From Patescibacteria group bacterium (lineage in GTDB: Bacteria; Patescibacteriota; Minisyncoccia; Phycocordibacterales; UBA2100), in the NCBI GenBank assembly GCA_038064835.1, contig JBBTSD010000001.1, positions 100,406 to 164,405 on the forward strand: a stretch of 64,000 nt of DNA. The letters run 5' to 3'. This document shows, piece by piece, positions 38,858-63,762 of this stretch (position 1 is the stretch's first letter; each line of letters begins with the position of its first letter). Under the pieces are notes generated by a model. It was not told the DNA's origin and did no database searches. It worked only from the letters and a program-made list of their open reading frames with translations. Position numbers and translations under genes: made by a program.

Positions 38858-39514
38858 ATGAGCACAGAATTTGCGATTGCCGATGTTTCGCCCGGCAAGC
38901 TGAACGCACTGGTGAAGAACCTCATGCGTCAGACTGGAGAATCCGATCCAAACGAGGCCGTTCGTCTTCTCAACTCGGGTGAATGGGTTGTTTCAAAACC
39001 GACCCATTCATGGCACGAGAAAGACGGCGTCATCTACTTCAATGTCACCTCGGACGGCACGACCGGCGAGGACTGGATCACCCGGCTCGAGAGCAAGGGC
39101 TTCAGCGTGGACAGCTGCGCCAAGCAGGTGCTCCGCTCAGCGGATTTCAAGCCGACCAACGGCGTGACGACCGAAGTCGCCGTCCTCAAAGGCTGTCTCT
39201 TCGAGGAACGGGGCCGGACTACTTCGGTGATCCGCGCCGAGGCCGACAAGAGGAAGCTCTCGAAGCCGAACACCGAGATCACCTGCCTCATCCGTGAGAA
39301 GTTCACCGACAAGAAGATCGAAGCGATGGGTCTGTGGTACATCGTTGCCATGCACGAACCCATCAACGACTCCGGCGGCGATCCGGTCTTGCTGTACGCG
39401 AACCGTAGCGTCGATGGTCGCCGGCTCAAGGCGTGCCACGAGCGGCCTCTCAACGGGTGGCATCGTGACAGCGGGTTCGCGTTCGCCGTGTCGCACGGCA
39501 GTGCTCAACCCTAA
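38858..39514 (+). CDS. Hypothetical protein encoded by a GC-rich gene
   Basis: 218 aa with an AAGGAGA RBS. Body roughly 60% GC versus roughly 50% for neighbours. Confidence 0.4.
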   Translation: MSTEFAIADVSPGKLNALVKNLMRQTGESDPNEAVRLLNSGEWVVSKPTHSWHEKDGVIYFNVTSDGTTGEDWITRLESKGFSVDSCAKQVLRSADFKPTNGVTTEVAVLKGCLFEERGRTTSVIRAEADKRKLSKPNTEITCLIREKFTDKKIEAMGLWYIVAMHEPINDSGGDPVLLYANRSVDGRRLKACHERPLNGWHRDSGFAFAVSHGSAQP

Positions 39515-39635
39515 GCTCCTCGGGACTTTAGTCCTTACAGGACCTGTACACCTTTTGAGCGATTTAAGAAAATCGCTCAAAAGGTCTTGAGAAGCTTCAA
39601 GTATTCGCTTCTCACCCTTTGAACTTAGTCCTTAG

Positions 39636-39665
39636 CCCCACTCCGACGGACGGGGTGGGGCTATT
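39636..39665. terminator. Hairpin between convergent genes
   Basis: agccccactccgacggacggggtggggct, followed by attttcat. Confidence 0.45.
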
Positions 39666-39697
39666 TTCATCAAAGACTCGGCTATGCTATATGGAAC

Positions 39698-40045
39698 CTA
39701 CTTAACCTCTGCAACAACGCGAGCGAATGTCTCGGGATGGTCCTTGGCGAGAGTAGCAAGAATTTTGCGATCCAAGGTAATTCCTTTCTTTTTAAGAGAA
39801 TCGATGAACGAGCTATATGAGCGCAATCCGAGTGCACGAACACCGGCGTTGATACGCACGGTCCAGAGCGCGCGGAACTCACGCTTTTTTGCGCGACGGT
39901 CTCGAAACGCATAGGTTCCTGCCTTGAAAATAGCGTCTTTCGCTGCGCGTTCCTTTTTAGAACGGGCAAAACGATAGCCCTTGACCATCTTAAGGACATT
40001 GCGACGGCGTTTTAGGGTACTGACTCCTCCTTTTACTCGGGCCAT
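39698..40045 (-). CDS. rplT: 50S ribosomal protein L20
   Basis: [19 protein letters not shown]... Confidence 0.9.
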
Positions 40046-48037: not shown

Positions 48038-51000
48038 GTGCCTAAGATTTTAAAATTACTTTGCTTATTACTGCTAGTAATCACCACACTCGGGCCCGTG
48101 GGTGTTTTGTATGCTGCTCCAGGTGTGCCAACCATCTTGAGTTTCCAAGGGAGACTTACTGATTCATCAGGTAATCTTTTGGGGGGCTCTGGGACAGGCT
48201 ATTATTTCAAGTTTTCAATATGGGATTCACCGACGGTTGGTTCAGGAAATCGTCTCTGGCCGACAAGTGCGCCAGGAAGTGTTACAACGACAGTCCGGCA
48301 AGGAGTGTTTACTGTTAATGTTGGCGACACGGCAAATGGATTCCCCGACGCACTTACTTATGCGTTTGATTCTGAAACTATCTACCTACAAGTCGAGGTA
48401 TCATCAAACGGATCATCGTACGAAACCCTTTCCCCTCGTCAGCAAATTGCCGCATCAGCATTTGCGCGCGTCGCGGGAGCGGTAAGTGGGACGGGGCAAT
48501 CAGCAATTGGAACAACAACGCCACTAGCGAATACGGTCCTCACTGTTGAGGCGACATCATCTATCGCGACACCGCTCAGTATTCGCGGGGCTCCGAACCA
48601 GTCTGGCAGTCTTTTAACTATTTTGAGTTCTGTAGGATCGTCGCTTTTCTCGATCGGTAGTTCAGGTAGTCTGACAGCGCTCGCGGGCGCACTCTTCGGG
48701 AATGCTTCATCGACTCTTTTTTCAACACTTGACGGTTTGTATGTTGGACGGACGGCAACAACTACTATCCTTGGTTCGGCAACTTCTACTTTCGGCGCAG
48801 GTGTCTCCACTACCCGCCTCGAAACCACTTCCGCCTCGTCAACTATCAACGGCCTTCGTGTCACTGGGAACGGCTTGCAGATCGCCAGTCTCGTAAACTG
48901 TGCTGAAGCACTGGAAACAGATGCAAGCGGCAACATCGTCTGTGGCACTGATGCCACTGCCGCAGGTGCTGCGGATCCGTTCACTTTCGCAACGAACTAC
49001 GGCATAACCAACGCCGCCACTTCGTCACCGCTGTGGGCATTAGCAGGCATCAATGCATCCTCAACATCACATTTCGCCACTTTTGACGCTGTTGCAGGAA
49101 CCACTACCAACTTCGCCATCTCAAACATCGCCAGCTCTCTTCTTAAAACAAATGCAACAGGAGGAATCGTCCCTGCTATCGCTGGTACTGATTACCTCAC
49201 CAGCTCAAGCATATTCAGCTACCTCTTCCCATCAAATGCCACCAGTACTGCACTCTCATTCACCGGAGGCATCACTACCACCAACGCCTCCACCACCAAC
49301 CTCTCCGGCAACACTCTCGCCATCGGCGGCACCGCCACCACCACCATTGCAAACACCGGAGCCATCACTACACCAACCTTGACGATAGGTACGCTTACGG
49401 GTTTTCTGAAAGCAACAGCAGGAGTTGTTGCGGCTGCAGCCGTCAATGTGGCGGCAGATATTACTGGCATTCTCCCCACCGCAAACGGCGGCACCGGCTG
49501 GGGTAATGTACAAGCAAACACAGTTCTTCTTGGTAATGGTACTGGTGCGCTTGCCACCACTACAGCGGGTGCGAACGGGCAGGTCCTCGCCCTCGTCGGT
49601 GGTGTCCCAACATGGACTGCAACAACTACCTTATCCACTATCTCAGGAACCCTTGGTGTCGGTACTGGCGGTACCGGACAGACTACTTTTGCATATGGTC
49701 TGCTATCTTCACCTGGCGGTACCGACGCTCTTACTACTATCAGCACCTCGTCGCTTGGTCTGCTTACTACTGATATTACCGAAGGATCGAATCTCTACTA
49801 CACAACCACTCGTTTTGATAATCGCTTGTCAGCAACTACCTCACTTCCAAATATCACTACACTTACAAATCTTTCGATATCTGCGACACAACTCAGTAAT
49901 TTCGGTACCCCGTTCTACCAATTCTTTTCTGCAACTACGACAGACGCCCTTACACAAGGGAGTACCAACAAGTACTACAGCGACCCGCTCGTCCAAGCCT
50001 TTGTGCACGCGTCTTCTACTATTCCGAAAACATATACCGCAAACACTTTTACGGGGGCAAATACTTTCTCTTCGGCGTTAACTCTCAGTGGTCTGAACGG
50101 CCCTCTTGATGCAAGGAACGGTGTCGTTGGTGCTACCACTTCAGTTGGCGTTCTTTATGGAGGTACCGGACTCACCTCTGCGCCGTCAAACGGAAGCATC
50201 CTGCTAGGGAACTCTTCGGGTGGCTACTCAATTTCAGCCACCTCCTCGCTCGGTATCGCACTTGCTGACACCACCGGCACACTTGCGGTTGCACGAGGTG
50301 GCACAGGAGCAACCACACTCTCCGACCTCATCACCCTTGGCACACACACCTCTGGCAACTACCTCGCCACGCTCACCAATGCCGGCGGTCTCACCATCGC
50401 GAACTCAGGAGCAGAGACTGCAGCAGTCACCGCAGCACTCGATCTCACCAATGCAAACACCTGGACAGGGAAGCAGAACTTCTACGGCACTGCCTCATCA
50501 ACACTGTTCTCGGCGAACCGCGCTTATTTCGGAGGGACAGCGACAACATCAATCTCTGATGCGGGTGTACTCACTTTGGCCGGCCTTACCTCGACCCTAC
50601 TTAAAGCAGACAACAGTAATAATCTTGTCGCCGCTGTGGCAGGTGTTGATTATTCAAACTTCGCATATCTGTTTCCCGGCAACGCCACGACGACGGCACT
50701 CACTTTTTCGAACGGGATTTTATCATCTGCCTCCACCACAATCGGAGCAGGAACACAGGCGACAGGGCTCACCGTATCGGGAGGAGCAACGACGACGGGA
50801 AACTTGATTGTGCAGGGAACAGGAACATCGACATTTTCAGGTGGTCTGCAGGCAACGAATGTATACGCAACTGCCACATCAACGATGGCTGGAATCATAT
50901 CGCAGTCGATTGTTCCTAATGGGGATGCAACCTACGATTTAGGGTCTGCTACGAATCGTTTTAGAGACCTCTACCTATCTACCGCATCACTTCACCTTGA

Positions 51001-52885
51001 ATCGACAGCGGGCGAAACTGGTTCAGCAAAACAATGGAAGTTTGGTATCGATACCGATAATGGACAACAGACGGGAACCTCAACAGGATTTTTCCGTATT
51101 CAAGAAGGGAGCTCAGACATGTTTTATATAAATCATGGCGGCCAAATTGGTGTGGGAGTCAAAGATCCTCGTGCACGGTTGCACACAAAAGGAAACCCGT
51201 TCCTTTCAGGGTTTAGCGCAGGGACTATCTCTAGCTCGGGCACGGCTGTAACAGGAAGCGGTACAGGTTTCTTGTTCGGTTCGAACAAAATTAATGTGGG
51301 GGATCAGATTCTTTCGGATGGACAGATTCGTACTGTGACATCCGTGGTGAACAATACGAGTCTTGTTGTTGACTCGGCATTTTCCCCTGCACTAAGTGCG
51401 CACACTTACCAATTTCAGCAACCAATAGCACGATTTGACACCAGTGCAGGTGACACGCGTTTTATTATCGGCCCTGGTGGAAATGTGGGCATTGGTGATT
51501 TAAATCCACAAGGTCTTTTCTCTGTCGGTGCAGGTGATGCGTTCTTTATAAATTCACTTGGAACGGTTGCGAGTGGCACATGGAATGGACAGCGAATTGG
51601 TGCGCTCTACGGCGGTACGGGCTCCACAACACTTTCAGGAATCCTGATCGGCAACGGTGTTAATCCAGTTGGGACGCTTACTGTTGGGTCAGGCCTTTCG
51701 CTTACGGGCACAACGCTCTCGACGAGCGGTGCGGGAATCACCTCAATCGGCTCGTCTGGTCAGCAACAGACAGGTGGAACGCAAGCATTTGCGACATCAA
51801 CAAGTGTAACAAATGGGCTTGTCTCAGGGATAACAATCGTTGGAAATAGCAATACTCACACATTCACTCCATCACTGTCAGGAGTACTGACTGTTGCAGG
51901 AGGCGGCACCGGAGGCACCTCGTTCTCCTACGGTCTCGTCTCCTCACCAGGAGGCACCAGTGCACTCACCAACATCGCGACCTCCTCGCTCGGTCTCCTC
52001 ACTACCGATGTCGCTGAAGGCACCAACCAGTACTACACAGACACCCGTGTGAACACCTATATCAACGCCTCCACCACCATTCCCAAGACATACACTGCCA
52101 ACACATTCACCAACACCAACTCGTTCACCAGTGCACTGATGGCAACAGGAGGATTCCTCTCAAGCGCATCATCCACCATCAATGGCTCACTCGTCGTCAC
52201 CGGTACTGCCACCTCCACCACGCTCGCCGTCACCGGAGTCACCTCATCACTCTTGAAAACAAACTCACTCGGACAAGTCGTCGCCGCAGTCGCTGGCACT
52301 GACTACACAAACTTCGGCTACCTCTTCCCCGCAAATGCCACCACCACCGCACTCTCATTCACCGGAGGCATCACTACCACCAACGCCTCCACCACCAACC
52401 TCTCCGGAAACACCCTCGCCATCGGCGGCACCGCCACCACTTCTATATCAAACACCGGCGTCCTCACACTCCCCGTTGCACTCAGTGCGTCATCAGGTGG
52501 TACGGGCATCTCGTCCGTCTCTGCCGCCCAAATCTTGCTGGGGAACTATGCGGGCACTGGCTGGCAACAACTCGCCACTTCCTCCCTCGGTCTCCTCACC
52601 ACGAATGTCGCAGAGGGAAGCAATCAATATTTCACCAACGCACGCGTACAAACATATCTCGACTCCGTCACCAAAGGATTCTTCTTTGCCACCACTTCCG
52701 CTGACTACTGGGAGACACAGCAGACAGCGCGCTCTGCAGACGACCTCACCAACAACAGTATTGAAGATCTCTCTAGTGAACGAGTAAAGTCGGCTGTCGA
52801 GACTTATCCCGAGTTTTATCTTGTCAAAAGCGACTGGTCTCTCGAAAACATTGTTGCGAAAATTAAAGAAATGCTTGTCGTCTAG
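48038..52885 (+). CDS. Giant (1615 aa) secreted Gly/Thr/Ser/Ala-rich repetitive surface protein (fibre/adhesin-like)
   Basis: Signal peptide MPKILKLLCLLLLVITTLGPVGVLYAAPG. Three copies of a module ...TTISTSSLGLLTTD(I/V)(T/A)EG(S/T)N(L/Q)YYT.TR... and two near-identical copies of ...DYLTSSSIFSYLFPSNATSTALSFTGGITTTNASTTNLSGNTLAIGGTATT.... Recurrent GGTG motifs. Confidence 0.6.
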   Translation: MPKILKLLCLLLLVITTLGPVGVLYAAPGVPTILSFQGRLTDSSGNLLGGSGTGYYFKFSIWDSPTVGSGNRLWPTSAPGSVTTTVRQGVFTVNVGDTANGFPDALTYAFDSETIYLQVEVSSNGSSYETLSPRQQIAASAFARVAGAVSGTGQSAIGTTTPLANTVLTVEATSSIATPLSIRGAPNQSGSLLTILSSVGSSLFSIGSSGSLTALAGALFGNASSTLFSTLDGLYVGRTATTTILGSATSTFGAGVSTTRLETTSASSTINGLRVTGNGLQIASLVNCAEALETDASGNIVCGTDATAAGAADPFTFATNYGITNAATSSPLWALAGINASSTSHFATFDAVAGTTTNFAISNIASSLLKTNATGGIVPAIAGTDYLTSSSIFSYLFPSNATSTALSFTGGITTTNASTTNLSGNTLAIGGTATTTIANTGAITTPTLTIGTLTGFLKATAGVVAAAAVNVAADITGILPTANGGTGWGNVQANTVLLGNGTGALATTTAGANGQVLALVGGVPTWTATTTLSTISGTLGVGTGGTGQTTFAYGLLSSPGGTDALTTISTSSLGLLTTDITEGSNLYYTTTRFDNRLSATTSLPNITTLTNLSISATQLSNFGTPFYQFFSATTTDALTQGSTNKYYSDPLVQAFVHASSTIPKTYTANTFTGANTFSSALTLSGLNGPLDARNGVVGATTSVGVLYGGTGLTSAPSNGSILLGNSSGGYSISATSSLGIALADTTGTLAVARGGTGATTLSDLITLGTHTSGNYLATLTNAGGLTIANSGAETAAVTAALDLTNANTWTGKQNFYGTASSTLFSANRAYFGGTATTSISDAGVLTLAGLTSTLLKADNSNNLVAAVAGVDYSNFAYLFPGNATTTALTFSNGILSSASTTIGAGTQATGLTVSGGATTTGNLIVQGTGTSTFSGGLQATNVYATATSTMAGIISQSIVPNGDATYDLGSATNRFRDLYLSTASLHLESTAGETGSAKQWKFGIDTDNGQQTGTSTGFFRIQEGSSDMFYINHGGQIGVGVKDPRARLHTKGNPFLSGFSAGTISSSGTAVTGSGTGFLFGSNKINVGDQILSDGQIRTVTSVVNNTSLVVDSAFSPALSAHTYQFQQPIARFDTSAGDTRFIIGPGGNVGIGDLNPQGLFSVGAGDAFFINSLGTVASGTWNGQRIGALYGGTGSTTLSGILIGNGVNPVGTLTVGSGLSLTGTTLSTSGAGITSIGSSGQQQTGGTQAFATSTSVTNGLVSGITIVGNSNTHTFTPSLSGVLTVAGGGTGGTSFSYGLVSSPGGTSALTNIATSSLGLLTTDVAEGTNQYYTDTRVNTYINASTTIPKTYTANTFTNTNSFTSALMATGGFLSSASSTINGSLVVTGTATSTTLAVTGVTSSLLKTNSLGQVVAAVAGTDYTNFGYLFPANATTTALSFTGGITTTNASTTNLSGNTLAIGGTATTSISNTGVLTLPVALSASSGGTGISSVSAAQILLGNYAGTGWQQLATSSLGLLTTNVAEGSNQYFTNARVQTYLDSVTKGFFFATTSADYWETQQTARSADDLTNNSIEDLSSERVKSAVETYPEFYLVKSDWSLENIVAKIKEMLVV

Positions 52886-53655: not shown

Positions 53656-54045
53656 TGTGGAGATGGCGGGAATTGAACCCGCGTCCAAAGGAGGAGTAGC
53701 TGATCGGTGTACACAAGGTAGTTCATTTGATTTTGTTTAAACGCAGGATGTGTGAAATGAGCAAAATCATCACGCGTCGAGCTTTCTTTCTTTAGTCAGT
53801 ATCTTGAAGCATCAGACACTGACGAATCCGGCATATATGACATGTACGGCATCTTGTCGGATGAAGATGAGTACACGGCCGCTTAGGCTAATGCGTAAGC
53901 GAAGCTGAGATCTTTCACCTGAATCGGTGAAAGGAACCCCCGTGCGGTTTTATTTGCACTTAGATTTTGAACAGTTTAAAGAAGATGTTCACTTCTCTTG
54001 TGCCTTTCAAGCTCTCGAATCTCCCTGTCGAAGCCAATCATCCCC
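53656..54045 (-). ncRNA. ssrA: tmRNA (SsrA), standard one-piece form
   Basis: Minus strand 5'-GGGGAUGAUUGGCUUCGACAGGGAGAUUCG... and 3'-...GGACGCGGGUUCAAUUCCCGCCAUCUCC-A. The acceptor stem GGGGAUG/CAUCUCC has G3-U70. The T-arm is GCGGG-UUCAAUU-CCCGC. Both ends closely resemble the E. coli tmRNA ends as recalled. An internal frame ...DLSFAYALA-UAA (stop revcomp at 53883-53885) is a plausible tag. smpB lies 0.6 kb upstream on the same strand, and a terminator follows at 53625-53652. Confidence 0.7.
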
Positions 54046-54621: not shown

Positions 54622-55062
54622 CTATTGTTTTGAAGCTCGGCGCATCGCACGATCTTCGTCGCGCTTCTTGATATCCTGCCGCTTATCATACTTCTTTTTT
54701 CCGCGGGCGATACCCAGAGAGAGCTTCAAATTTCTCCCCTTATTATACACCGAAAGTGGCACTATTGTCAATCCCCCTGTTCGTTCAGCTTCAGAAACCT
54801 GTTCAATTTGGCTTTTCGATAAGAGAAGCTTTCGAGGGCGCTCAGAATCGTAGGTCTTTGGGGCATTGGCTACCTGCCAAGCAGGGATGGTAACCCCTAC
54901 CAAAAAAGCCTCGCTACCGCGTGCGATTATACGCCCACCGTCCAAGGAGCCCTGTCCTTTGCGGATGGATTTGACTTCATATCCGAAAAGTACCAAACCC
55001 GCCTCGATTGTTTCGAGGATTTCGTAATTCAGTCGCACTTTTTTGTTTTCCAAGAGGGCCAT
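54622..55062 (-). CDS. smpB: SsrA-binding protein SmpB
   Basis: MALLENKKVRLNYEILETIEAGLVLFGYEVKSIRKGQGSL... Start at ATG 55062 (the listed ORF is longer). The K/R-rich C-terminal tail is typical of SmpB. Confidence 0.85.
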   Translation of the reverse strand: MALLENKKVRLNYEILETIEAGLVLFGYEVKSIRKGQGSLDGGRIIARGSEAFLVGVTIPAWQVANAPKTYDSERPRKLLLSKSQIEQVSEAERTGGLTIVPLSVYNKGRNLKLSLGIARGKKKYDKRQDIKKRDEDRAMRRASKQ

Positions 55063-55304
55063 GCTGAAACTATACCATCGACAAGTAAGGTCTGAACAAA
55101 AGTCGTAGAAAATTGTGGCTGGAGCGACGAAGAAAAAAGTGAAATATATCCGTAGATACATTGAGCTTTTTTCTTCGAGCTATAGCATATTTTCAAGACT
55201 TGGTGTTCAGAGATTAGTTGGAGATGGTATTACCACAAACGAGGAGAAAGCGAACGCATTTCCCAATCTTCTTGGTACTATGGAATCAGACAAGAGAGGT
55301 CTTC

Positions 55305-56297: not shown

Positions 56298-56339
56298 GGC
56301 GCACAAGAAATTTGTGCGCCTTTGTGGTACAATATTTGC

Positions 56340-58286
56340 ATGAAATTTTCACTTCGTGGCGGACAAGAGCAGGCTCCCGAAGGGGACGCAGGAGCACCAA
56401 AGGTAAAGAAAGAGCCACCTAGTTTCTGGATGCAGGCGGGGCTCACGCTTCTTCTGTTCCTCGGGCTTTCAGTCGTATATGGCGTTATTAGTGAACAAGT
56501 GATGAAGAATGATGATGTCCCGCTTTCTCAGATTGCCGCCGACCTTGTTGCATCGAGCACCATCACCTCTATTGTCGTCGAAGGCGACCACATCACCGCT
56601 ACCTATGCCGATAAGACCACCAAGACTTCAAAGAAAGAATCTGAAAGTTCACTGACCGATACTTTCGTGAATTATGGCGTTTCTCCTGCAGTGCTCACCA
56701 CTATATCTATCGAAATAAAAGATCCCGGAGGTGCACGATTCTGGTTCCTTACGCTCGCACCGATGATTATTCCATTTCTTCTCTTGCTCGGTTTGGTGTG
56801 GTACTTCTCGCGCCAGGTGCGCGGCGCAGGTATGCAAGCGTTTACCTTTGGACAATCACGCGCCCGCCTCATGACACCAGATGATGGGGGACAGAAGATT
56901 ACCTTTGCTGATATCGCAGGTGCCAAGGAAGCCAAAGTTGAACTCACTGAGATTGTCGATTTTTTGAAAAATCCTGAAAAATTCCTTGCGATTGGCGCGC
57001 GTATTCCGAAGGGTGTGATGCTTATGGGTGCGCCTGGCACGGGCAAAACTTTGCTTGCACGAGCAGTGGCGGGCGAAGCAGGTGTGCCATTCTTTTCGAT
57101 TTCCGGATCCGAATTTGTCGAAATGTTTGTGGGTGTGGGCGCTTCGCGTGTGCGCGATCTTTTCTCGGTCGCAAAGAAGCACGCACCGGCGATAGTGTTT
57201 GTTGATGAAATTGATGCGGTGGGCCGTGTGCGCGGCACTGGCGTGGGTGGCGGAAACGACGAGCGCGAACAGACGCTCAATCAGATTCTCGTCGAACTTG
57301 ATGGGTTCGAGCCAAGCGAGAAGGTGATAGTGATGGCGGCGACAAATCGTCCCGATGTGCTTGACCCGGCGCTCCTTCGCCCGGGACGGTTTGATCGGCG
57401 TGTGACTATCGATTTGCCCGACAGAGAGGATCGTGAGGGTATTCTAAAAATTCACTCACGAAAGAAGCCGCTTCATGCCGATGTAAATGTCACGGTCATT
57501 GCCGAGAGGACACCGGGATTTTCAGGAGCCGATCTGGCCAACCTCATGAACGAGGCCGCGATTCTTGCGGCGCGTGAAGATCGAAAGGAGATTACCCAGT
57601 ACGACCTACTGCGTTCGATTGAAAAAGTCATGCTCGGTCCCGAACGGCGCAGTCACATCCTCAACAAAAAAGAAAAAGAGATTACGGCATATCACGAGGC
57701 CGGACACGCAATCGTCTCTTCGGTCCTCGAGTACGCTGATCCTGTGCACAAGGTATCGATTATTTCTCGCGGTCGCGCCGCAGGGTACACACTCAAGCTT
57801 CCTCTCGAAGACCGCCGCATGCAATCGCGCAATGAGTTTCTCGATGACATAGCGGTGTCGCTTGGTGGATACATTGCCGAGAAGCTGATATTTGGCGACC
57901 TTACTACTGGCGCTTCGAATGATTTGCAGGTACTCACTTCGCTTGCGCGCGATATGGTAGTGCGTTTTGGTATGTCGGACAAAGTTGGTCCGATGGCACT
58001 CGAATCCGCTGGGGGCAAGCCATTGTTTGGGGGAACCGGTGTTGAAGGCCACGAACATTCAGAAGAGGTTGCTGCCATGATCGACTCGGAAGTAAAGAAA
58101 ATAATCGAAGGCGCTCACAAGAAAGCCGAAGCGGTAATTAAAAAGCATAGGGATGCACTCGATACAATTGCGCGCGTTTTGATGGAGCAGGAAACCATCG
58201 AACGCGATGACTTCGAGGACCTCCTTGTCGCGCACGGCATCGCTCCTAAAAAGAAGCAGGATATTGAGCACCAGCCGATTGTGTAG
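56340..58286 (+). CDS. ftsH: ATP-dependent zinc metalloprotease FtsH
   Basis: [18 protein letters not shown], a second AAA region, HEAGHAI zinc site. The TACAAT -10 lies just upstream. Confidence 0.9.
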
Positions 58287-58288
58287 AT

Positions 58289-59338
58289 ATGAGCGAGCTA
58301 GAAAGGGGATTTTCAGGCTTCTCAATTCAGAAATACGACGGCCCACCAGGATTTACATCGATGGGCGAAAATGTGGCAGTTGCAAAAACTGCTGTGGCAT
58401 TGGAGGAGTATCTAGAATCGCTCGGACTGGAGAATCCGGTGCCAGAAAAAATTCTCGAGATTCTTGGTGGGGCACCTCGCGCATTCACTCCATACTTTAC
58501 GCAGGCACTCGATAATTACATCAGGGCACAGAAATTTGCACGGCAGTGGCATGACGGTTTTCTTGCGGGTGTGCAGAGGCGTCAGCAGGAAGGGGTTACT
58601 GAAGACGAGGCTAGGGCCGAAGTTGGTGCACAAATCTTTAGTCAGATTGCTGATGGGAAGACAGCGAGAGGACTTATTCATCCGAAGATGCAAGGTCCTG
58701 TACTTGTTCTAATGTGTACTGACGAACAAGACTATCTCGAACTTTATGATCGGGGGAAGCACGAAGAATCTCCTGGCGTTGCAGCAAAAGGATCGGCAGG
58801 GTTTTATCGTCCTGAGGAAGATCTATCTATTTTTGGCGGGCTTCCCATCCATACTATTGCGTTTAGGATTCCAAAAGAAGGCAAATTTCCACCAGGAGAA
58901 CTGGATGCTTTGTTGCGGCATGAACTTCAGCACTTTATACAGAGGGTCGCACTAGGTATGTTTACGGTTACGGAGGGGAAGGTTGACACAGTTGGACTTG
59001 GTGCGGTCAAAGATGAACTACTCGCACATCTCCGCGACCAAAGACTCTATCAGTCACTTGCATCATTTCCACGAAACGAAATATACACAAAACTTTTCTC
59101 TGTGCTTTTAGATACCGACAATGCGGTTGCTCGGGAAGCCATTGGTGCGCTTGCCAAGTATCTCGATAGTTATGCGGAGGTACTTTCTTCGGAACGAGAA
59201 CGCGCAGTGCTTGTCTATCAGCTGTCCAGTATAAATATGGGTGATTTTCCGCGCTGGCTTACTATACTTGCGCGGTACAACCAAATGCACAACCCTGAAC
59301 GGTACCCACCACCATACACATATGTCACGATGCCCTAA
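58289..59338 (+). CDS. Hypothetical protein with HExxH motif (possible zinc-dependent hydrolase)
   Basis: LRHELQHFIQRV. No other landmarks. Confidence 0.35.
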   Translation: MSELERGFSGFSIQKYDGPPGFTSMGENVAVAKTAVALEEYLESLGLENPVPEKILEILGGAPRAFTPYFTQALDNYIRAQKFARQWHDGFLAGVQRRQQEGVTEDEARAEVGAQIFSQIADGKTARGLIHPKMQGPVLVLMCTDEQDYLELYDRGKHEESPGVAAKGSAGFYRPEEDLSIFGGLPIHTIAFRIPKEGKFPPGELDALLRHELQHFIQRVALGMFTVTEGKVDTVGLGAVKDELLAHLRDQRLYQSLASFPRNEIYTKLFSVLLDTDNAVAREAIGALAKYLDSYAEVLSSERERAVLVYQLSSINMGDFPRWLTILARYNQMHNPERYPPPYTYVTMP

Positions 59339-59384
59339 TTACTTGTTTGTCAGTATATAGTTGATGGCGTAGAGTGTACGCACT

Positions 59385-59607
59385 GCGCCCGTAGCTCAAT
59401 GGTAGAGCGCTAAGCTTACTGTGGCTAACGAGCGTCGATTGAAAATCTGTGTGGGCGCATAGCTCAATGGTAGAGCGCCAAGCTTATACCTTGGTGGTTC
59501 TAGGTTCGAATCCTAGTGCGCCCACACAGATTTTCAATTCGCGCGAGTAACGACACAGGATTGAAAATATACCTTAGTGGTTCCAGGTTCGAGTCCTGGC
59601 GGGCGCA
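59385..59607 (+). tRNA. tRNA-Val(UAC)-like gene split by a 151-nt insertion in the anticodon loop (5' part 59385-59419; 3' part 59571-59607)
   Basis: 5' GCGCCCG-TA-GCTC-AATGGTA-GAGC-G-CTAAG-CTTAC | ... | AC-CTTAG-TGGTT-CCAGG-TTCGAGT-CCTGG-CGGGCGC-A. Acceptor, D, anticodon and T stems are all fully complementary across the insertion. Confidence 0.45.
59453..59524 (+). tRNA. Complete tRNA with anticodon UAU (tRNA-Ile(UAU)-like), nested inside the split tRNA
   Basis: GGGCGCA-TA-GCTC-AATGGTA-GAGC-G-CCAAG-CTTATAC-CTTGG-TGGTT-CTAGG-TTCGAAT-CCTAG-TGCGCCC-A, a canonical cloverleaf. Flanked by a 17-18-bp inverted repeat (59436-59452 / 59525-59541). Confidence 0.6.
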
Positions 59608-59671
59608 CAAAAACAATGAGCTCGACACGAAGTGTGGATTTGGTGTTGCACACCCTAATTTGCATGGGACA

Positions 59672-61549
59672 ATGGACACATCATTAATGACTAATGCGTT
59701 TCTTATGGCTATTCGTTTACCTGTGCGTGGGATAGTGCTTGGACTGGTTCTTTCAATGATTGTCCTGCCGTTGTTCACACACGCTCAAACATCCGCCGAA
59801 CTCGAAGACCAGATCAAGGCTCTATTGGAGCGCATCAATGCGCTCCAAGGAGATTTGGGAGGGCCAACAACAAACACTACTACCACAGGCACGGCTGGTA
59901 CTGGAACAGGCTCGGGTACCAACCCTCCTGGTACAGGAGGCGTCGCCCCTCTTTCAAATCTGAATCCAGGTAACGGCAGTGTGCTTCGCGGCGGGTTGTT
60001 CCTCACGCGTGATATTGCGCGCGGTGCAACAGGTGAAGATGTGGCGCGTCTTCAATCGTTCTTGTCACAAGACATTTCAATCTACCCTGAGGGTGTTGTC
60101 TCGGGTCGTTATATCAATCTCACTGAGGCAGCTGTCAAGAGATTTCAAGTTGCATGCGGGATTGTCTCGTCGGGTACCTATGCCGGTACGGGATATGGTC
60201 GTGTTGGCCCCAGAACACGTGCCGCACTTGCCGATGGATGTCCAAACGCCACGCCTGCAGAGGTCGGTGCGTTTATTCGTGTGACTCCAATCTCAGGTGG
60301 AGCACCGCTCACGGTGACTGTCGCTGCCACAGTGAATACTTCACGATCCTGCGAACGCTCTACCTATCTCCTTGATTTCGGTGATGGTACTGCCCCGTTT
60401 GAACTGACAGTTCCCGCCACGCGTTGCGTCGAACTTTCCCAGTCTATCGCACACACGTATGCAACGGCGGGCACCTATGTGGTTACTCTCTCAATCGGTG
60501 AGCATCAAACAACGGTGAATGTACAAGTGACCAACGGACCTTCGACTGGTACCACACCACCCCCCACCACCGTAAGTACCATCACGCGTCTTGTGCTGTC
60601 GGCACACAACTACTACCAAGATTGTTGGGTGTCTTACGAAGGCAATGTCTACGACATTACACGCTGGCTGCCTGTGTACCCGGGCGGATCATCCGAGATT
60701 GCCGGTACCTGCGGAAGTGATACGCAATTCACGAATTTTTTCCGTTCGCGACATAGTGGACAGACGGCACTCCTGTCACAACAGGGGACATTCATGGGGC
60801 GCCTGGGCACTATCGCCACCACACCGGCTCTCTTGGCAGATTCTCTGAGTGCATCACCACTCAATGGCAACGCGCCGATTACCGTGACATTTAATGCACG
60901 CATCAATGGAGCCGCATCATGTGCAGGTGGTGAGTACACGCTTGATTTTGGCGACGGAGAAAAAGCACCGTTGCAATTTGCAGTAAATGCCTGCCGTGCG
61001 CACGAATTTAATATCACACATCGATATGACACTGGTGGAGCGAAGGTCGCCAAGTTGTACAAAGAGCGTGCCGCACAAATAAACAACCTCACTCCGCCGG
61101 TGAGTAGTGTCACGCTCAATGTAGTCGGCACTGCCGCCACCTTTGATCCACAGCTTTCCATCACGCCAAGTTTTGAAGGGTTGGCAACCAAGATACAAGC
61201 TCGATTTACTCTGGAAAATGCATGCACTGGGTTTACAGTCGAGTGGGGTGATGGCCGGCCATCGGCAACGCGCGCGCATACAACGGTCGGTTGCAATAGT
61301 AACCGTGACACAACAACTCATGTGCACACATATCCTTCAATAACCGGAAGCACTAACTACACGCTCCGACTCTCGTTTGGACCACCAACCACGCTGGTAC
61401 AGCGCACGGCAAGTATCGTGATTGTCGGTACGACTACAACGACCACAAATCCGCCATCTAGGGATGGCTGTGATAGCGGTGCGTCTAATTACTTCATAAC
61501 CGGATGTGCCGAAAGAGCCAATGGTGACACCGGCGGTGGTGGCAACTAG
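59672..61549 (+). CDS. Secreted multidomain protein: peptidoglycan-binding (PG_binding_1-like) domain, PKD/Ig-like repeats and a cytochrome b5-like heme-binding domain
   Basis: Signal/TM segment (LPVRGIVLGLVLSMIVLPLFTHA). GEDVARLQSFLSQD...LTEAAVKRFQ (PG-binding-like). HNYYQDCWVSYEGNVYDITRWLPVYPGGSSEIAGTCGSDTQF (cyt-b5 HPGG-type motif). Start at ATG 59672, because the listed longer ORF would run through the tRNAs. Confidence 0.5.
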   Translation: MDTSLMTNAFLMAIRLPVRGIVLGLVLSMIVLPLFTHAQTSAELEDQIKALLERINALQGDLGGPTTNTTTTGTAGTGTGSGTNPPGTGGVAPLSNLNPGNGSVLRGGLFLTRDIARGATGEDVARLQSFLSQDISIYPEGVVSGRYINLTEAAVKRFQVACGIVSSGTYAGTGYGRVGPRTRAALADGCPNATPAEVGAFIRVTPISGGAPLTVTVAATVNTSRSCERSTYLLDFGDGTAPFELTVPATRCVELSQSIAHTYATAGTYVVTLSIGEHQTTVNVQVTNGPSTGTTPPPTTVSTITRLVLSAHNYYQDCWVSYEGNVYDITRWLPVYPGGSSEIAGTCGSDTQFTNFFRSRHSGQTALLSQQGTFMGRLGTIATTPALLADSLSASPLNGNAPITVTFNARINGAASCAGGEYTLDFGDGEKAPLQFAVNACRAHEFNITHRYDTGGAKVAKLYKERAAQINNLTPPVSSVTLNVVGTAATFDPQLSITPSFEGLATKIQARFTLENACTGFTVEWGDGRPSATRAHTTVGCNSNRDTTTHVHTYPSITGSTNYTLRLSFGPPTTLVQRTASIVIVGTTTTTTNPPSRDGCDSGASNYFITGCAERANGDTGGGGN

Positions 61550-61565: not shown

Positions 61566-63707
61566 CTATTCTTCGTGGAGAAGAGCGCCAGTGCGTTCGG
61601 CGCGCTCGATGAGGTTTGGAAGTACGGCGTCCTTCTCGACAAGATACCGCGCTGCCTCACGAGCCGCTTCGATGAGTTTTGGATTCTTAAGTGCCTCCAT
61701 ACCTAAATCAGAAATACCCCATTGTGATCGTCCATATAAATCACCCGCACCGCGGAGTAGTAGGTCTTGTTCTGCCAATGCAAATCCATCGCGAGTCTTG
61801 GCAATTGCTTTCAAGCGATTGCGAGATGTTTCCGAAAGGGATTCTGGTGCAAGGAAGCAGTAGGCTGTATGCGCGCTACGCAAGACACGACCCCGTAGCT
61901 GGTGAAGTTGAGCCAGGCCGAATCGCTCGGCCCCCTCGATCATAATTATTGTTGCATTTGGGACATTAACACCCACTTCAACCACGGATGTAGCAACAAG
62001 AATATGGATGGTCCCGTTAGAAAATAATTTCATTATGCTGTCTTTGTCTGCAGGAGTCATCTTGCCGTGCAGTACGCCGATGGTGTACTCAGGAAACACC
62101 TCTTTCTTGAGTCGCTTCGCCTCAGCAACTACTGATCGGGCACGAAGAGCCATCTCTTTCTCGGGATCTGGTTCGTCGATCCGCGGGCAAATCACATATA
62201 CCTGACGGCCAAGGGAAAGCTCGCGTCGCATAATCGAGTATGCTTCGCTGCGTTTTTCTTTGGGAACAAGTCGGGTTTCAATGCCGGCACGATCTTTGGG
62301 TAATTCATCCAACACGGAAATATCCAAGTCGCCGTACATGGTGAGTGCAAGTGTACGGGGCATTGGTGTCGCGCTCATCGAAAGAAAATGCGGCGGCGCG
62401 TCTCCTTTGTGAGCAAGTTTCTGTCTTTGTGCTGTACCAAAGCGGTGTTGCTCATCAACAATTGCGTATGCCAAGTGCGCGAATTTTATAGATTTCTGAA
62501 TGAGTGCATGTGTGCCAATAAGCATCGCAATTTCTCCGTTCGCTACCCACTTCAAGAGTTGCGCACGCGATATCGCCGTGGGCTTCTCGCGGTTTATTTT
62601 TGAAGGGAATTTAAAACAGCCACTGCCTGTAAGGAGCGCTATATTTATCGGCAAGTGCCGATAAAATTCAATAAAGGATAGAAAGTGTTGGCCAGCGAGT
62701 ATTTCGGTAGGGGCCATGTATGCCACCTGCAAGGTCCCACTGATGCGTCCTTTTGGGCGCGAAGTAACTACAGCATATGCCGTTGCCGCCGCTACCACAG
62801 TCTTTCCTGAGCCCACATCACCCTCAAGGAGACGCGCCATGGGGTGTGGTTTTTCAAAGTCAGTGAGAATGTCACCAATAACTCGCTGTTGAGCGCCAGT
62901 GAGTGGAAAAGGGAGGGAGGCGGTAAACTGCTCGACTCGTCCGGGGTCTGCTTGGACGCGAAAGGCGGGCAATTCTGTGTTTCTTTTGCGCTCAATTTGT
63001 TTGCCAATTTGGAGCACAAACATTTCTTCAAATGAAAATCGCTTGCGTGAGGCTTCCGCATCGCGAACTGTTTTGGGAAGGTGGACTCGGATGAGTGCTG
63101 AAGGAAGGTCAGGTAAATGGTAAGTATCGCGCACTTCAGAAGGAATCGGATCTTCTAATTCTTGTACAAATCGTTCGGCAAGTATTTTCTTGAGCGCATG
63201 ATACATCCATCGACTGGTGATCCCCTGGCTTTCAGGGTAGACAGGAAATAACACGGCTTCGCTATTTTCCTCAGTACGGAAAAGTCCGTCAGCAATTGCG
63301 TTCCCCGCAACAACTTCTATTTCTGGGTTGGTAATGTACGGTTTTTCTTTGCCGGCCACTGTGCCCGAGAGTTTGACTACCACATTCTCGGGGACCATCT
63401 TTGAAATGTAGGGTTGGTTGAACCAAATGACTTTGATACGACCACTGCCGTCTTCAAACCATCCCTCGGTTGCAGTGCGGCGACTTTTCCAAAGTTTTTT
63501 GGCAGTGAGTCGTGAAAGCTTTCCATACAATGTCACCGTAGTGCCATGCGCGAGCGAAGCGACGGTGCCAGATTCTTGGATGTTGTCATAACGCACAGGG
63601 AAGTGATAGAGAAGATCGTGTATAGTCGCAACTTTCAGACGGTGGAGAGCTTTCTTCTGGTCAGGAACTAGGCGGAAGTGTTCGGTGAGAAGGTCGCCAG
63701 GATTCAT
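61566..63707 (-). CDS. recG: ATP-dependent DNA helicase RecG
   Basis: GDVGSGKT, DEQHRFG and TATPIPRTL-like (SATPMPRTLAL) helicase motifs with a RecG wedge-domain layout. Start at ATG 63707 (or TTG 63740). Confidence 0.85.
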   Translation of the reverse strand: MNPGDLLTEHFRLVPDQKKALHRLKVATIHDLLYHFPVRYDNIQESGTVASLAHGTTVTLYGKLSRLTAKKLWKSRRTATEGWFEDGSGRIKVIWFNQPYISKMVPENVVVKLSGTVAGKEKPYITNPEIEVVAGNAIADGLFRTEENSEAVLFPVYPESQGITSRWMYHALKKILAERFVQELEDPIPSEVRDTYHLPDLPSALIRVHLPKTVRDAEASRKRFSFEEMFVLQIGKQIERKRNTELPAFRVQADPGRVEQFTASLPFPLTGAQQRVIGDILTDFEKPHPMARLLEGDVGSGKTVVAAATAYAVVTSRPKGRISGTLQVAYMAPTEILAGQHFLSFIEFYRHLPINIALLTGSGCFKFPSKINREKPTAISRAQLLKWVANGEIAMLIGTHALIQKSIKFAHLAYAIVDEQHRFGTAQRQKLAHKGDAPPHFLSMSATPMPRTLALTMYGDLDISVLDELPKDRAGIETRLVPKEKRSEAYSIMRRELSLGRQVYVICPRIDEPDPEKEMALRARSVVAEAKRLKKEVFPEYTIGVLHGKMTPADKDSIMKLFSNGTIHILVATSVVEVGVNVPNATIIMIEGAERFGLAQLHQLRGRVLRSAHTAYCFLAPESLSETSRNRLKAIAKTRDGFALAEQDLLLRGAGDLYGRSQWGISDLGMEALKNPKLIEAAREAARYLVEKDAVLPNLIERAERTGALLHEE

Positions 63708-63762
63708 GGCATGAGTATACGCGCAGAACAGGTATACCAAAAGAAAACCGCACCAAGGGGTG

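Follow-up and report, generated by a model that had tools for sequence, protein, structure and literature searches.

A tRNA-Ile(UAU) gene in a groundwater Patescibacteria genome lies inside the anticodon loop of a second tRNA-Ile(UAU) gene, and this arrangement is best explained by a small tRNA-carrying cassette that replaced its target gene, leaving the outer gene as a young relic, or shell (probability about 0.55). The nest is found in a 64-kb stretch of DNA, here called the window. To our knowledge, self-splicing introns and integrating islands, which leave a scar kilobases away, have been regarded as the only interruptions of bacterial tRNA genes. Here a tRNA gene would have been replaced from within by its own copy, on a structured cassette of 150 nt, and the replacement recurs in a phylum of minimal genomes and single-copy tRNA genes. 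Nests of this kind, some of them multi-layered, appear to be spread across the phylum and to have escaped description: literature searches on nested tRNA, CPR tRNA introns, a Patescibacteria splicing endonuclease and tRNA pseudogenes returned no account of the phenomenon.

Anatomy of the nest

The outer gene consists of a 5' half (59385-59418) and a 3' half (59568-59607) that together make a second perfect tRNA and flank a canonical tRNA-Ile(UAU) at 59453-59524. The features, all on the + strand, are:

59347..59375, +: promoter-like boxes TTGTCA and TAGAGT, 17 nt apart, upstream of the outer gene (consensus scan)
59385..59418, +: outer (shell) tRNA-Ile(UAU) of the resident gene, 5' half, positions 1-35, with CTTA as its last bases, within the anticodon loop
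59417..59418, +: TA at the left insertion junction, first of its two copies
59419..59452, +: leader, which forms the 5' side of the rod (folds, alignment fold, pair counts), with closing helix CTGTG 59419-59423, 2-bp AC 59428-59429, invariant GA 59430-59431 and a strand of the long helix that continues into the inner acceptor
59453..59524, +: inner complete tRNA-Ile(UAU) gene, presumed live (ARAGORN, Rfam)
59525..59567, +: trailer, which forms the 3' side of the rod (repeats, folds, alignment fold, pair counts), with long-helix strand to ∼59541, invariant GA 59545-59546, 2-bp GU 59547-59548, closing helix CACAG 59554-59558 and, at 59559-59567, a tail of 9 unpaired nt, GATTGAAAA
59548..59568, +: 21-nt direct repeat of leader 59426-59446, 76% identical, including the 'third GATTGAAAAT'
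59568..59607, +: outer tRNA-Ile(UAU) of the resident gene, 3' half, starting with TATAC (positions 34-38), with C72 at 59606
59607, +: discriminator A of the outer tRNA

A preliminary description of the locus had recognised a canonical inner tRNA-Ile(UAU), and two programs agree: ARAGORN calls tRNA-Ile(tat) at 59453-59525, and Rfam matches RF00005 over 59453-59524 with 77 bits (E 5.8e-17; gathering threshold 29). It had also drawn perfect outer stems from the two halves. These are the acceptor GCGCCCG/CGGGCGC, D GCTC/GAGC, anticodon CTAAG/CTTAG and T CCAGG/CCTGG, with 21/21 stem pairs Watson-Crick. Joined as CTTA+TAC, the halves score 126.3 in ARAGORN as Ile(tat), equal to the inner tRNA, and are predicted to give a full cloverleaf with a 7-nt anticodon loop; in the series in which all junctions were tried, the top reconstruction was Ile(tat), at 123.7.

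The identity first given to the outer gene, Val(UAC), hangs on where the junction is placed, which is arbitrary. On the 5' side, homology with the inner tRNA reaches CTTA, and on the 3' side it resumes at TATAC, so the outer gene is a tRNA-Ile(UAU) in which TA is present twice (59417-59418 and 59568-59569), around an insert of 149 nt (59419-59567); the search for another tRNA-Val(UAC) is therefore moot. The halves are colinear and in 5'-3' order with the 149 nt between them, on which grounds a split or permuted tRNA was rejected. The insert has no ORF, the tRNA is its sole gene, and neither of its junctions rebuilds a tRNA. An empty site would read CTTA directly joined to TACCTTAG. The bases specific to the shell are the acceptor GCGCCCG, the anticodon stem CUAAG/CUUAG and the T stem CCAGG/CCUGG; across the joined halves they would read ...GCGCUAAGCUUAUACCUUAGUGGUUCCAGG...

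The inner tRNA is flanked, as previously claimed, by an inverted repeat, 22 nt long and 100% complementary (59438-59459 with 59517-59538), which extends from leader and trailer into the inner acceptor stem. The D arms of the two tRNAs had been called identical; they are near-identical, in a 35-nt repeat of 89%. Shell and inner tRNA differ at 11 positions, each compensatory or in the T loop, and eight of these fall within the 14 acceptor nucleotides. Folding of the entire region gives -106.5 kcal/mol (z = -8.25), which 0 of 200 shuffles match. The third copy of GATTGAAAAT reported earlier is indeed present, at 59559-59568, within the 21-nt direct repeat of the leader, and the last 9 nt of this repeat can pair with 59530-59538 in an alternative hairpin. 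The window holds 7 matches to GATTGAAAAT vs 6.9 expected, which is no enrichment, and no further copy of leader or trailer within 64 kb at up to 3 mismatches.

The consensus scan gave one promoter-like site on the + strand, upstream of the shell, and these boxes presumably drive the whole nest. Nests can mislead tRNA annotation: ARAGORN gives the inner gene only, its intron search leaves the outer gene unreported, and half-genes may pass as pseudo-tRNAs. The 'tRNA-Leu with 148-nt intron' that the intron search placed at 39474-39722 is spurious, with a poor D arm and T loop.

Mis-assembly had been named as a possible refutation. In that case reads of two tRNA-Ile alleles would have been joined as a chimera. 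Coverage is low (∼3x in the ENA contigs) and the Logan contigs stop inside the locus, but an artefact is extremely improbable. An independent ENA assembly from another well (L002) contains the same 224 nt without a difference, and three Logan contigs from other runs span the 5' junction, reading 105-113 nt from the outer 5' half through the leader into the inner tRNA. The same architecture is found in dozens of unrelated MAGs and metagenome contigs.

The uninterrupted gene in relatives

Seven relatives were picked solely by FtsH similarity (75-80% identity). Each has one uninterrupted tRNA-Ile(UAU) near ftsH, without a rod, so that the comparison suggested in the preliminary description does reveal an uninterrupted gene at the same place. 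The window locus lies between ftsH and recG, and the gene order of one relative, L170, is that of the window. Without the 149-nt insert, the window aligns colinearly to L170 (107/157 identical), including the promoter-like boxes, which match the region upstream of the uninterrupted gene, and the 3' flank. From this alignment the outer halves are therefore taken as the resident gene and the insert as lineage-specific. The acceptor of the shell differs from those of the uninterrupted genes (L169, L170) at 2 of 14 nt, that of the inner tRNA at 8 of 14. By sequence comparison, the shell is thus the orthologue of the relatives' uninterrupted genes. Among the neighbours, an orphan 349-aa protein had no homologues in the search, and the homologues of a PKD protein are paralogous and of no use for synteny.

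A conserved rod around the inner tRNA

In the Ile family of nests, the leader pairs with the trailer to form a conserved rod, ∼30 bp long, as an extension of the inner acceptor stem. In the rod alignment 90.9% of cells are paired and 22 of 32 pairs carry compensatory changes; 0/500 shuffles reach the observed value, and slid controls give 29-50%. Judged by this covariation, the rod is under structural selection, and it represents a new structured RNA or DNA motif. Both strands have an invariant GA, and a G-U pair kept in 4/6 sequences points to the transcribed strand as the one that matters. The closing helix, beside the outer anticodon loop, has double changes in 5/5 pairs and takes forms such as CTGTG/CACAG, CATTGG/CCAATG and GAAAC/GTTTC. 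There are no inverted repeats at the extreme ends of the rod, and an unpaired 3' tail of 5-11 nt follows. Ordinary tRNAs at the same loci are mostly without leader-trailer complementarity.

As a family trait, the direct repeat of the leader within the trailer was dropped, since it reaches significance in no members but the window and L130 (19 nt in L130). The internal loop of the rod was inspected for a bulge-helix-bulge, kink-turn, loop E or attC, none of which fits by consensus; it is described here only as a conserved internal loop that contains GA/GA.

Recurrence, layering and decay

A pattern scan for two D arms spaced closer than one tRNA length returned at least 120 loci, ∼25 of them nests, and a second scan added four Ile nests. 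Read from the 5' end, a nest begins with one half of a tRNA and a leader; a whole tRNA of matching anticodon follows, then a trailer complementary to the leader and the remaining 3' half. Isotypes include Ile, Thr, Val, Ala and Met, inner and outer anticodons match in every nest examined, and most nests are in MAGs with a Patescibacteria label. Some are stacked: L128 has three layers, the outermost 5' half with a 44-nt D-loop insert and a broken anticodon stem, and L010 has at least four 3' halves in succession. Stacked shells of this kind are a legible fossil record of serial tRNA replacement.

Decay of the shells is progressive. Rejoined in silico, 11/21 give a tRNA bearing the inner anticodon, and about half of the shells are decayed; those of L012, L053, L094 and L066 are without U33, position 36 or the entire 3' anticodon-stem strand. 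First-level Ile shells are intact in six of seven cases. In all seven members of the Ile family at least TA is duplicated, the stretch being 2-4 nt long, and the junction CTTA/...TA/TAC (35/36) is possible. In L114 the rod is perfect and the T arms of the shells are destroyed; what the rod serves is therefore either the inner tRNA or the cassette, and not the splicing of the shell.

An in-situ duplication, by replication slippage or misaligned gap repair, would produce a nest without any mobile element or exchange among lineages. It would suit L129, L096, L130 and L128, in which the inner tRNA is the same as the shell or nearly so, and the leader repeat in the trailer (21 nt in the window, 19 nt in L130) also suggests duplication. 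This origin is nonetheless remote, given that the inner tRNA of the window differs from the shell at 11 positions and lies farther from the relatives' genes than the shell does, that leader and trailer are unlike the flanks of the resident gene, and that homologous rods sit in lineages with nest-free relatives between them.

Three viral scans found no phage-borne nest; their matches were phage tRNAs in tandem, one coincidental match in coding sequence (L149) and GC-rich matches due to chance. In an alignment judged by eye, the rods of the window and L096 look far more diverged than the shells.

Probable replacement by a cassette

Three options had been offered at the outset: a tRNA-bearing intron, a disrupted pseudo-tRNA hosting a mobile cassette, and a permuted or duplicated locus. 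The last found no support and the second is best supported, by the uninterrupted genes at the same place in relatives, by shell decay and by nesting at several levels. In this cassette model, the resident tRNA-Ile(UAU) would have been split in its anticodon loop, at the duplicated TA, by a 149-nt cassette. The whole nest would be transcribed as one RNA off the old gene's promoter, and the rod would clamp the inner tRNA at both ends and so keep the outer halves, which are almost the same in sequence, from mis-pairing with it. A double-strand RNase probably opens the rod, after which RNase P and 3' processing would free the inner tRNA, the decoder of AUA. A long helix that prolongs the acceptor stem is expected to hinder, not help, RNase P. 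The outer halves would be a recently inactivated shell without a function of its own. Against a relic stand the flawless shell of the window and the intact first-level Ile shells of its family.

The cassette family would insert repeatedly into cognate tRNA genes of Patescibacteria, and nests of several layers would arise because each new cargo tRNA is a target too. Candidates for the inserter are a trans-acting tyrosine recombinase that acts on the folded rod, homologous recombination via the tRNA halves following DNA uptake, and a larger integrase-bearing element that was later reduced. The 64-kb window holds no transposase, integrase or second cassette copy, and mobility is therefore argued from distribution only. 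That the folded rod acts as recombination site for a new class of gene-free, tRNA-carrying cassette homing into the cognate anticodon loop is possible at best. If the cassettes are mobile, they form a new class of very small selfish elements, and each survives by destroying and replacing an essential gene at once, an addiction logic that needs no protein.

Possible splicing of the outer tRNA

For this intact shell, no evidence in favour of a tRNA-bearing intron emerged, and we consider that option unlikely. In a functional nest, both tRNAs would mature from one transcript, with rod and inner tRNA as a protein-dependent intron of the outer tRNA-Ile. An endonuclease would read the closing helix and GA loop and cut the base of the rod, an RtcB-type ligase would join the halves, and RNase P and RNase Z would release the inner tRNA. 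As a general proposal, that Patescibacteria mature the tRNAs of nested genes by such an endonuclease on the GA/GA rod and ligation of the halves, with two tRNA-Ile per promoter, is equally speculative.

Several observations are compatible with such a nest. The shell cloverleaf is perfect, with differences from the inner tRNA that are compensatory or in the T loop; shell acceptor stems vary among genomes with pairing always full; and first-level Ile shells are largely intact. The closing helix covaries, and the common 35/36 junction is feasible throughout the family, at the same site as group I introns of other Patescibacteria tRNAs (PMC13011429). The shells of the window and L096 differ at 6/72 positions, and such close shells with diverged rods would fit selection on the shell as well as recent independent insertions.

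However, inspection and folds allow no bulge-helix-bulge to be drawn at the junctions, and Rfam detects no ribozyme or intron family. We know of no bacterial enzyme that would cut such a structure. The intact rod of L114 encloses dead shells, the shells of L012, L053, L094 and L066 lack parts of the anticodon arm, splicing of all layers in three- and four-layer nests is implausible, and a single uninterrupted gene suffices in relatives. If shells are spliced after all, an unrecognised tRNA splicing pathway exists in bacteria; it would be the first in Bacteria for tRNA introns that do not splice themselves, with an intron that is itself a tRNA.

Comparison with known systems

The closest known logic is tRNA-dependent lysogeny in actinobacteriophages, in which the host comes to rely on the insert (Guerrero-Bustamante and Hatfull 2024, PMC10865867). 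As there, the tRNA gene is disrupted without reconstruction; in the nest, inner and outer genes are both Ile(UAU). The lysogenic insert, however, is an entire prophage with its own tyrosine integrase and a tRNA somewhere inside, whereas the nest insert is 149 nt with a tRNA only. The nest also differs in its conserved hairpin rod bounds, its anticodon-loop site, its multi-layer recurrence and the lack of an integrase.

A nest might nevertheless be what remains of a larger element: an integrative element that encoded a tyrosine integrase, either phage or island, would have entered the anticodon loop, left the tRNA unrestored and supplied a tRNA-Ile of its own in compensation, as in tRNA-dependent lysogeny, and streamlining would later have deleted all but the essential tRNA and its immediate flanks. 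The locus L113 (DATKVM010000005.1) lends this origin some substance. Its tRNA-Ile(UAU) shares the acceptor GGGCGCA with the inner tRNA of the window, is directly preceded by a 5' tRNA-Ile fragment that ends in the anticodon loop, and is directly followed by a convergent tyrosine recombinase (Pfam Phage_integrase, E 1.3e-26). The mycobacteriophages give experimental proof of such logic (PMC10865867), and the short duplicated core at the junctions (TA to TATA) suits site-specific recombination. We still find this origin doubtful. Independent deletions would not yield uniform inserts of ∼100-150 nt, with covarying rods and defined ends, in seven lineages, and no integrase lies in the window or beside any other nest. 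The L113 recombinase may be a chromosomal XerC/D-type enzyme, adjacent by chance; as a query, it found no homologue in the window or near other nests.

Group I introns have a P3-P8 catalytic core, are normally at least 200 nt long, pair a U of the 5' exon with a G in P1 and end in G. They occur in tRNA anticodon loops, including those of Patescibacteria at 35/36 (Nakagawa et al. 2026, PMC13011429). The nest resembles them in that a bacterial tRNA of the same phylum is broken in the anticodon loop at a compatible 35/36 junction. Unlike them, it has no core (no Rfam match at E<=1 over 59000-60000), and its 149-151 nt, of which 72 are tRNA, end in A for every junction that restores CTTATAC. The insert is thus too small for a group I intron, as had been argued before, with no Rfam intron match, and self-splicing is not expected of a tRNA on a simple rod.

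Spliceosome-independent tRNA introns of archaea and eukaryotes keep both splice sites in the bulges of a 3-4-3 bulge-helix-bulge, or of a relaxed helix-bulge-helix, and are processed by an EndA-family endonuclease and an RNA ligase. Archaeal disrupted tRNAs comprise bulge-helix-bulge introns, the mobile introns of Thermoproteales and split or tri-split genes (Fujishima et al., as presented in PMC10714607). They share with the nest short structured inserts at or near the anticodon loop that spread among tRNAs, and complementary leaders that hold halves together; no archaeal intron is reported to contain a full tRNA of the same identity. The junctions of the nest, by contrast, both fall within a single large, asymmetric loop below a 5-bp helix, and in the predicted, covariation-supported structure no 4-bp helix with flanking 3-nt bulges can be drawn there. 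The host is a bacterium, for which we know of no splicing endonuclease, and the literature searched holds no paper that ties an EndA-family splicing endonuclease to Patescibacteria.

Bacterial MITEs with TA duplication (IS630/Tc1-mariner type), such as the Correia elements of Neisseria (PMC2649163; review PMC10969869), are similar in size (100-160 bp), have no coding capacity, duplicate TA, and form a long transcript hairpin cleavable by RNase III. MITEs have terminal inverted repeats and many dispersed copies. In the nest, the strongest repeat is instead internal and abuts the tRNA, the CTGTG of the left end pairs with CACAG 9 nt inside the right end, a second copy is absent in 64 kb, and the target is always a cognate tRNA gene. 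The duplicated 2-4 nt could be a recombination core instead of a target-site duplication.

Island integration likewise leaves partial tRNA genes next to complete ones (Williams 2002; van der Gulik et al. 2023, PMC9897764). An island scar is one displaced 3' (or 5') fragment kilobases off, whereas a nest has both halves, placed symmetrically within 35-45 nt.

Over 59000-60000 at E<=1, Rfam returns only the tRNA, an antisense echo (Plastid-ycf2), weak microRNA hairpins and a sub-threshold YrlA. The last, a Y RNA-like family, was rejected at 18.8 bits vs 69 gathering (E 0.5), its likeness being due to the tRNA. The R boxes of integron attC sites are RYYYAAC and GTTRRRY. The closing helices of the nests fit no R box consensus, and attC was rejected; the general layout, with a closing helix, an unpaired spacer and a variable tip, is similar.

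Anatomy of the nested locus

At this locus a complete tRNA gene is enclosed by the 5' and 3' halves of another, an arrangement here called a nest. The inner gene, tRNA-Ile(UAU), is the sole tRNA found at the locus by ARAGORN (59453-59525) and scores 77 bits with Rfam. Complementary acceptor, D, anticodon and T stems are present in the outer segments 59385-59419 and 59571-59607, as the preliminary description had it, and the joined outer halves, together the shell, make a full tRNA with an ARAGORN score of 126.3, equal to that of the inner gene. All the sequence features in the preliminary description are present, and the outer halves share direct repeats of 35 and 42 nt with the inner gene. 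The leader and trailer, which join the shell halves to the inner tRNA and pair with each other to form a rod, contain the clamping inverted repeat reported earlier: it is perfect over 22 nt (59438-59459 with 59517-59538) and continues from them into the acceptor stem of the inner tRNA. The third copy of GATTGAAAAT was recovered by a repeat search, and the nest region is predicted to fold far more stably than shuffled sequence (z = -8.25).

The identity first given to the outer gene, tRNA-Val(UAC), has to be revised. Homology to the inner gene reaches CTTA on the left and begins with TATAC on the right, an arrangement common to every other member of the Ile family of nests, so that the outer gene, too, is a tRNA-Ile(UAU), interrupted by a 149-nt insert (59419-59567), the cassette, with a copy of the duplicated TA on either side. 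Mis-assembly, which the preliminary description had allowed for, is contradicted by an identical locus in an independent ENA assembly from another well; three Logan assemblies connect the outer 5' half, by way of the leader, to the inner tRNA in stretches of 105-113 nt. An ARAGORN intron search returned a 'tRNA-Leu(AAG) + 148-nt intron' on the minus strand at 39474-39722, judged a false positive for its poor D arm and T loop.

The MAG (GCA_964361175.1, contig CAYHZP010000001.1) comes from Hainich groundwater and belongs to the Patescibacteria, the candidate phyla radiation; judged by protein similarity, its nearest relatives carry the labels Kaiserbacteria, Parcubacteria or Paceibacterota.

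Features around the nest in the window
53657-54045, minus strand: tmRNA
54622-55161, minus strand: smpB, adjoining the tmRNA
between smpB and ftsH: patatin-like gene
56322-58286: ftsH
58289-59338, plus strand: orphan ORF of 349 aa, between ftsH and the tRNA locus
59347-59375, plus strand: promoter-like site upstream of the shell, conserved in the relative L170
between the orphan ORF and the PKD/cytochrome-b5 gene: tRNA nest
59672-61549: PKD/cytochrome-b5 protein gene
61566-63740, minus strand: recG

The orphan ORF has no homologue but itself among 5.8 billion clustered proteins and no match in Pfam or NCBIfam; relatives have small, unrelated ORFs at its position. The tmRNA tag peptide, ANKTARGFLSPIQVKDLSFAYALA, is kept with small changes in relatives L165-L168, and in L165 a LAGLIDADG-type ORF adjoins the tmRNA gene. 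Upstream of the tmRNA region lies a very long ORF (1615 aa, 48038-52885, plus strand).

The uninterrupted gene in relatives

Relatives were sampled blind to their tRNAs, as the best FtsH homologues (75-80% identity), which gave eight contigs. A single, plain, uninterrupted tRNA-Ile(UAU) lies near ftsH in seven of them, and the leader-trailer rod is absent from all seven; the eighth has no tRNA within the stretch covered. The gene order of L170 is that of the window (ftsH, small ORF, tRNA on the plus strand, PG-binding/PKD protein, recG on the minus strand), and without its insert the window is colinear with L170 from the promoter-like boxes through the tRNA into the 3' flank, with 107 of 157 positions identical. 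The plain genes resemble the shell more closely than the inner tRNA: acceptor stems of L169 and L170 differ at 2 of 14 nt from the outer gene and at 8 from the inner, and over the whole tRNA those of L165 and L166 show 14-15 differences to the outer gene and 22-23 to the inner. The outer gene is therefore orthologous to the one tRNA-Ile(UAU) that the relatives carry, and the insert is a derived state specific to the window's lineage.

Of the options raised in the preliminary description, a disrupted tRNA hosting a tRNA cassette is the best supported, by the empty site in relatives and by decayed shells elsewhere. The reading preferred here, with a probability of roughly 0.55, is that a gene-free, tRNA-carrying cassette entered and functionally replaced the resident tRNA-Ile(UAU), the outer halves being a young relic.

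Recurrence, layering and decay

A scan of one genome per species, for two D-arm motifs less than one tRNA length apart followed by a T arm, matched at least 120 loci. Among the matches listed, about 25 share the anatomy of the window: between a 5' half and a 3' half with mutually pairing acceptor strands sits a complete tRNA of matching anticodon, preceded by a short leader and followed by a trailer complementary to that leader. The 5' half usually terminates in the anticodon loop; in a few nests the break lies elsewhere, as in L111 (T stem). The isotypes of these nests are Ile(UAU), Thr(GGU, CGU, UGU), Val(CAC, UAC), Ala(CGC, GGC) and CAU, and the hosts are mostly MAGs labelled Patescibacteria, Kerfeld-, Levy-, Moran-, Kazan-, Paceibacterota or Saccharibacteria (L010 has no label beyond 'bacterium', and L044 and L074 bear an automatic 'Gammaproteobacteria' label). 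An Ile-specific scan of metagenome contigs yielded four further distinct nests. Leader-trailer duplexes reach -20 to -43 kcal/mol around nested tRNAs, against mostly -2 to -19 around other tRNAs of the same loci; the high-pairing exceptions inspected among the latter have flanking tRNA fragments and a paired leader and trailer, and look like further nests decayed to varying degrees. The nested tRNA is thus a recurrent feature, mostly in MAGs labelled Patescibacteria.

Several nests are layered. L128 (2011-2390) has three tRNA-Ile layers, the outermost 5' half carrying a 44-nt D-loop insert and a mismatched anticodon stem, and its outer rod is a shortened homologue of its inner rod. At least four 3' halves of tRNA-Thr(CGU) are stacked in L010 (4600-5150), two 5' halves in L104 (3880-4140) as identical '5' half plus leader' units, and two 3' shells, both decayed, in L114. 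Rejoined in silico, 11 of 21 first-level shells yield a tRNA with the inner anticodon and 10 do not; failures include the loss of U33 (L012), of position 36 (L053) or of the anticodon-stem 3' strand (L094, L066) and a decayed T arm (L015). Shell condition spans pristine to ruined, which is what relics of differing age would look like.

In most non-Ile nests the leader and trailer are short, G+C-rich and of one type, CCTGCCCGCC...GGCAGGCGGG. Similar sequences form G+C-rich hairpins of 20-40 nt, with no tRNA within, in the shell T loops of eight loci (L105, L099, L016, L109, L111, L014, L010 and L060), for example TCCGCC...GGCGGG or CCCGCCTGC...GGCAGG; such hairpins, which interrupt the loops, could represent a mobile element, small and palindromic.

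The Ile family and its rod

The window's family has an A+T-rich leader and trailer and is confined to tRNA-Ile(UAU). It comprises the window, L011 (with L128 and L133), L134, L129 (with L131 and L132), L096, L130 and L114, with L060 as a decayed case. The majority are located near ftsH, recG and smpB, and where a substantial part of ftsH is present, FtsH is 62-75% identical to the window's. Leaders of 27-34 nt and trailers of 40-51 nt share a predicted fold.

Elements of the predicted rod, from the shell towards the inner tRNA, with the tail last
closing helix of 5-6 bp, extending in some members into the end of the 5' half
asymmetric loop, AA opposite GAA
2-bp element
invariant GA opposite invariant GA
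long helix running on into the inner tRNA acceptor stem
unpaired tail of 5-11 nt between the closing helix and the 3' half

Across six aligned sequences, pairing extends to 90.9% of cells and 22 of 32 pairs have changed on both sides, with covariation in 5/5 pairs of the closing helix and 2/2 of the 2-bp element. No shuffle out of 500 equals the alignment on any of the five measures, and pairing drops to 29-50% in slid controls. One position is G-U in four of the six sequences, which points to the transcribed strand, either as RNA or as single-stranded DNA. By inspection, the internal loop fits no consensus for a kink-turn, loop E, bulge-helix-bulge or attC.

In L114 a perfect rod stands within shells whose T arms are destroyed, and in L060 shell and rod have decayed around an intact inner tRNA. 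Together with the shrinkage of the older, outer rod in L128, this pattern implies that the rod accompanies a live inner gene in a recognisable shell, not a functional shell. The rod may be a structure recognised by the inserting machinery, or may insulate the inner tRNA within a transcript whose flanks nearly match its own halves; the two uses are mutually compatible, and each fits the pattern in L114, L128 and L060.

These observations bear on the alternative that the window's shell is still matured, its outer halves being spliced and held under purifying selection. The window's shell is flawless, its differences from the inner gene all being compensatory or in the T loop; six of the seven Ile shells at the first level are likewise intact; only 6 of 72 positions separate the window's shell from that of L096, while the rods of these two, judged by eye from the alignment, look far more diverged; and a shared 35/36 junction is possible in all family members. 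Intact, little-diverged shells are, however, equally explained by recent independent insertions into a then-live gene or by concerted evolution with the inner copy. The window nest has neither a bulge-helix-bulge motif nor a ribozyme, and no bacterial enzyme is known to make such a cut. L114 keeps a live rod around dead shells, some shells in other nests are beyond restoring, and nests of several layers exist. Splicing of the shell is accordingly judged unlikely. Group I introns in tRNAs of other Patescibacteria do sit at 35/36 (PMC13011429).

Origin and expression of the cassette

Several features of the family are relevant to how the cassette may have entered. The junction TA is duplicated in all members, in some extended to TAT or TATA. 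Nested and un-nested lineages are interspersed, and by FtsH the window is nearer to its seven un-nested relatives than to any nested genome compared. Acceptor stems form a succession across the genomes: GCGCCCG belongs to the live inner gene in L130 and to the shell in the window, and GGGCG(C/T)A to the innermost gene of the window, L011, L134 and L113. In some genomes (L129) inner gene and shell are identical, a sequence pattern suggesting that the cassette can re-insert into its own cargo.

Three candidate routes of entry may be envisaged: a trans-acting tyrosine recombinase could recombine the folded rod, DNA uptake could be followed by homologous recombination via the tRNA halves, or a larger element could have been reduced to the cassette. 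In L113 (7100-8000) a tRNA-Ile(UAU) has the same acceptor stem as the window's inner tRNA; it is flanked on one side by a 5' tRNA-Ile fragment that terminates in the anticodon loop and on the other by a tyrosine recombinase gene in convergent orientation, inside which the locus sequence stops. This arrangement could be a relative of the cassette that bears an integrase. No integrase was found near the other nests. The promoter-like site upstream of the shell is the only one on the plus strand, so the inner gene is probably expressed by read-through from the old promoter.

Comparison with known systems

The window nest can be seen, by analogy, as an insertion that breaks a tRNA gene and makes good the loss, which is a known principle. 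The nearest concept is tRNA-dependent lysogeny, in which a phage breaks a tRNA gene of its host, does not restore it and itself provides a tRNA of that isotype (PMC10865867); there the insert is an entire prophage with integrase, unlike the gene-free 149-nt cassette. Classical island integration leaves one displaced tRNA fragment, kilobases off (PMC9897764). Correia-type MITEs resemble the cassette in size, TA duplication and hairpin transcript but differ in their terminal repeats and many dispersed copies (PMC2649163, PMC10969869). Archaeal mobile introns and split tRNAs likewise involve disrupted tRNA genes but depend on bulge-helix-bulge splicing (PMC10714607). A full-text literature search, with most subscription journals outside its coverage, returned no description of a tRNA gene nested in a tRNA gene. 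In scale, anatomy, conservation of the rod and nesting in multiple layers, these loci resemble no described system, and the alternatives to a relic would, if true, be categorically new.

Other arrangements

Many of the scan matches listed are of other kinds: tight tandem tRNAs, gaps of N, and 5' fragments beside complete genes (Clostridia, Bacteroidota). Ten gut Clostridia MAGs (L019, L022, L079, L082, L087, L106, L108, L115, L123 and L125) carry a conserved 41-44 nt 5' fragment of tRNA-Phe(GAA), 12-16 nt upstream of a complete tRNA-Phe(GAA) and with no matching 3' half nearby. In Pseudomonas and Pseudoalteromonas (L013, L028, L069, L090), tRNA-like genes of 72 nt occur in tight pairs; their anticodon loops are short, ARAGORN labels them 'tRNA-???', and they matched the nest pattern because of their close spacing. 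Two viral contigs (L153 and L160) contain a repeated hairpin similar to the G+C-rich T-loop hairpins. In a Bacteroidales MAG (L039), a 5' tRNA-Lys fragment, a complete tRNA-Lys(UUU) and a distant 3' fragment, over ~491 nt, enclose a short ORF that by eye, from the sequence YVGYTNDLERRISEHN, resembles a GIY-YIG nuclease; this is probably a separate kind of tRNA-gene-associated element.
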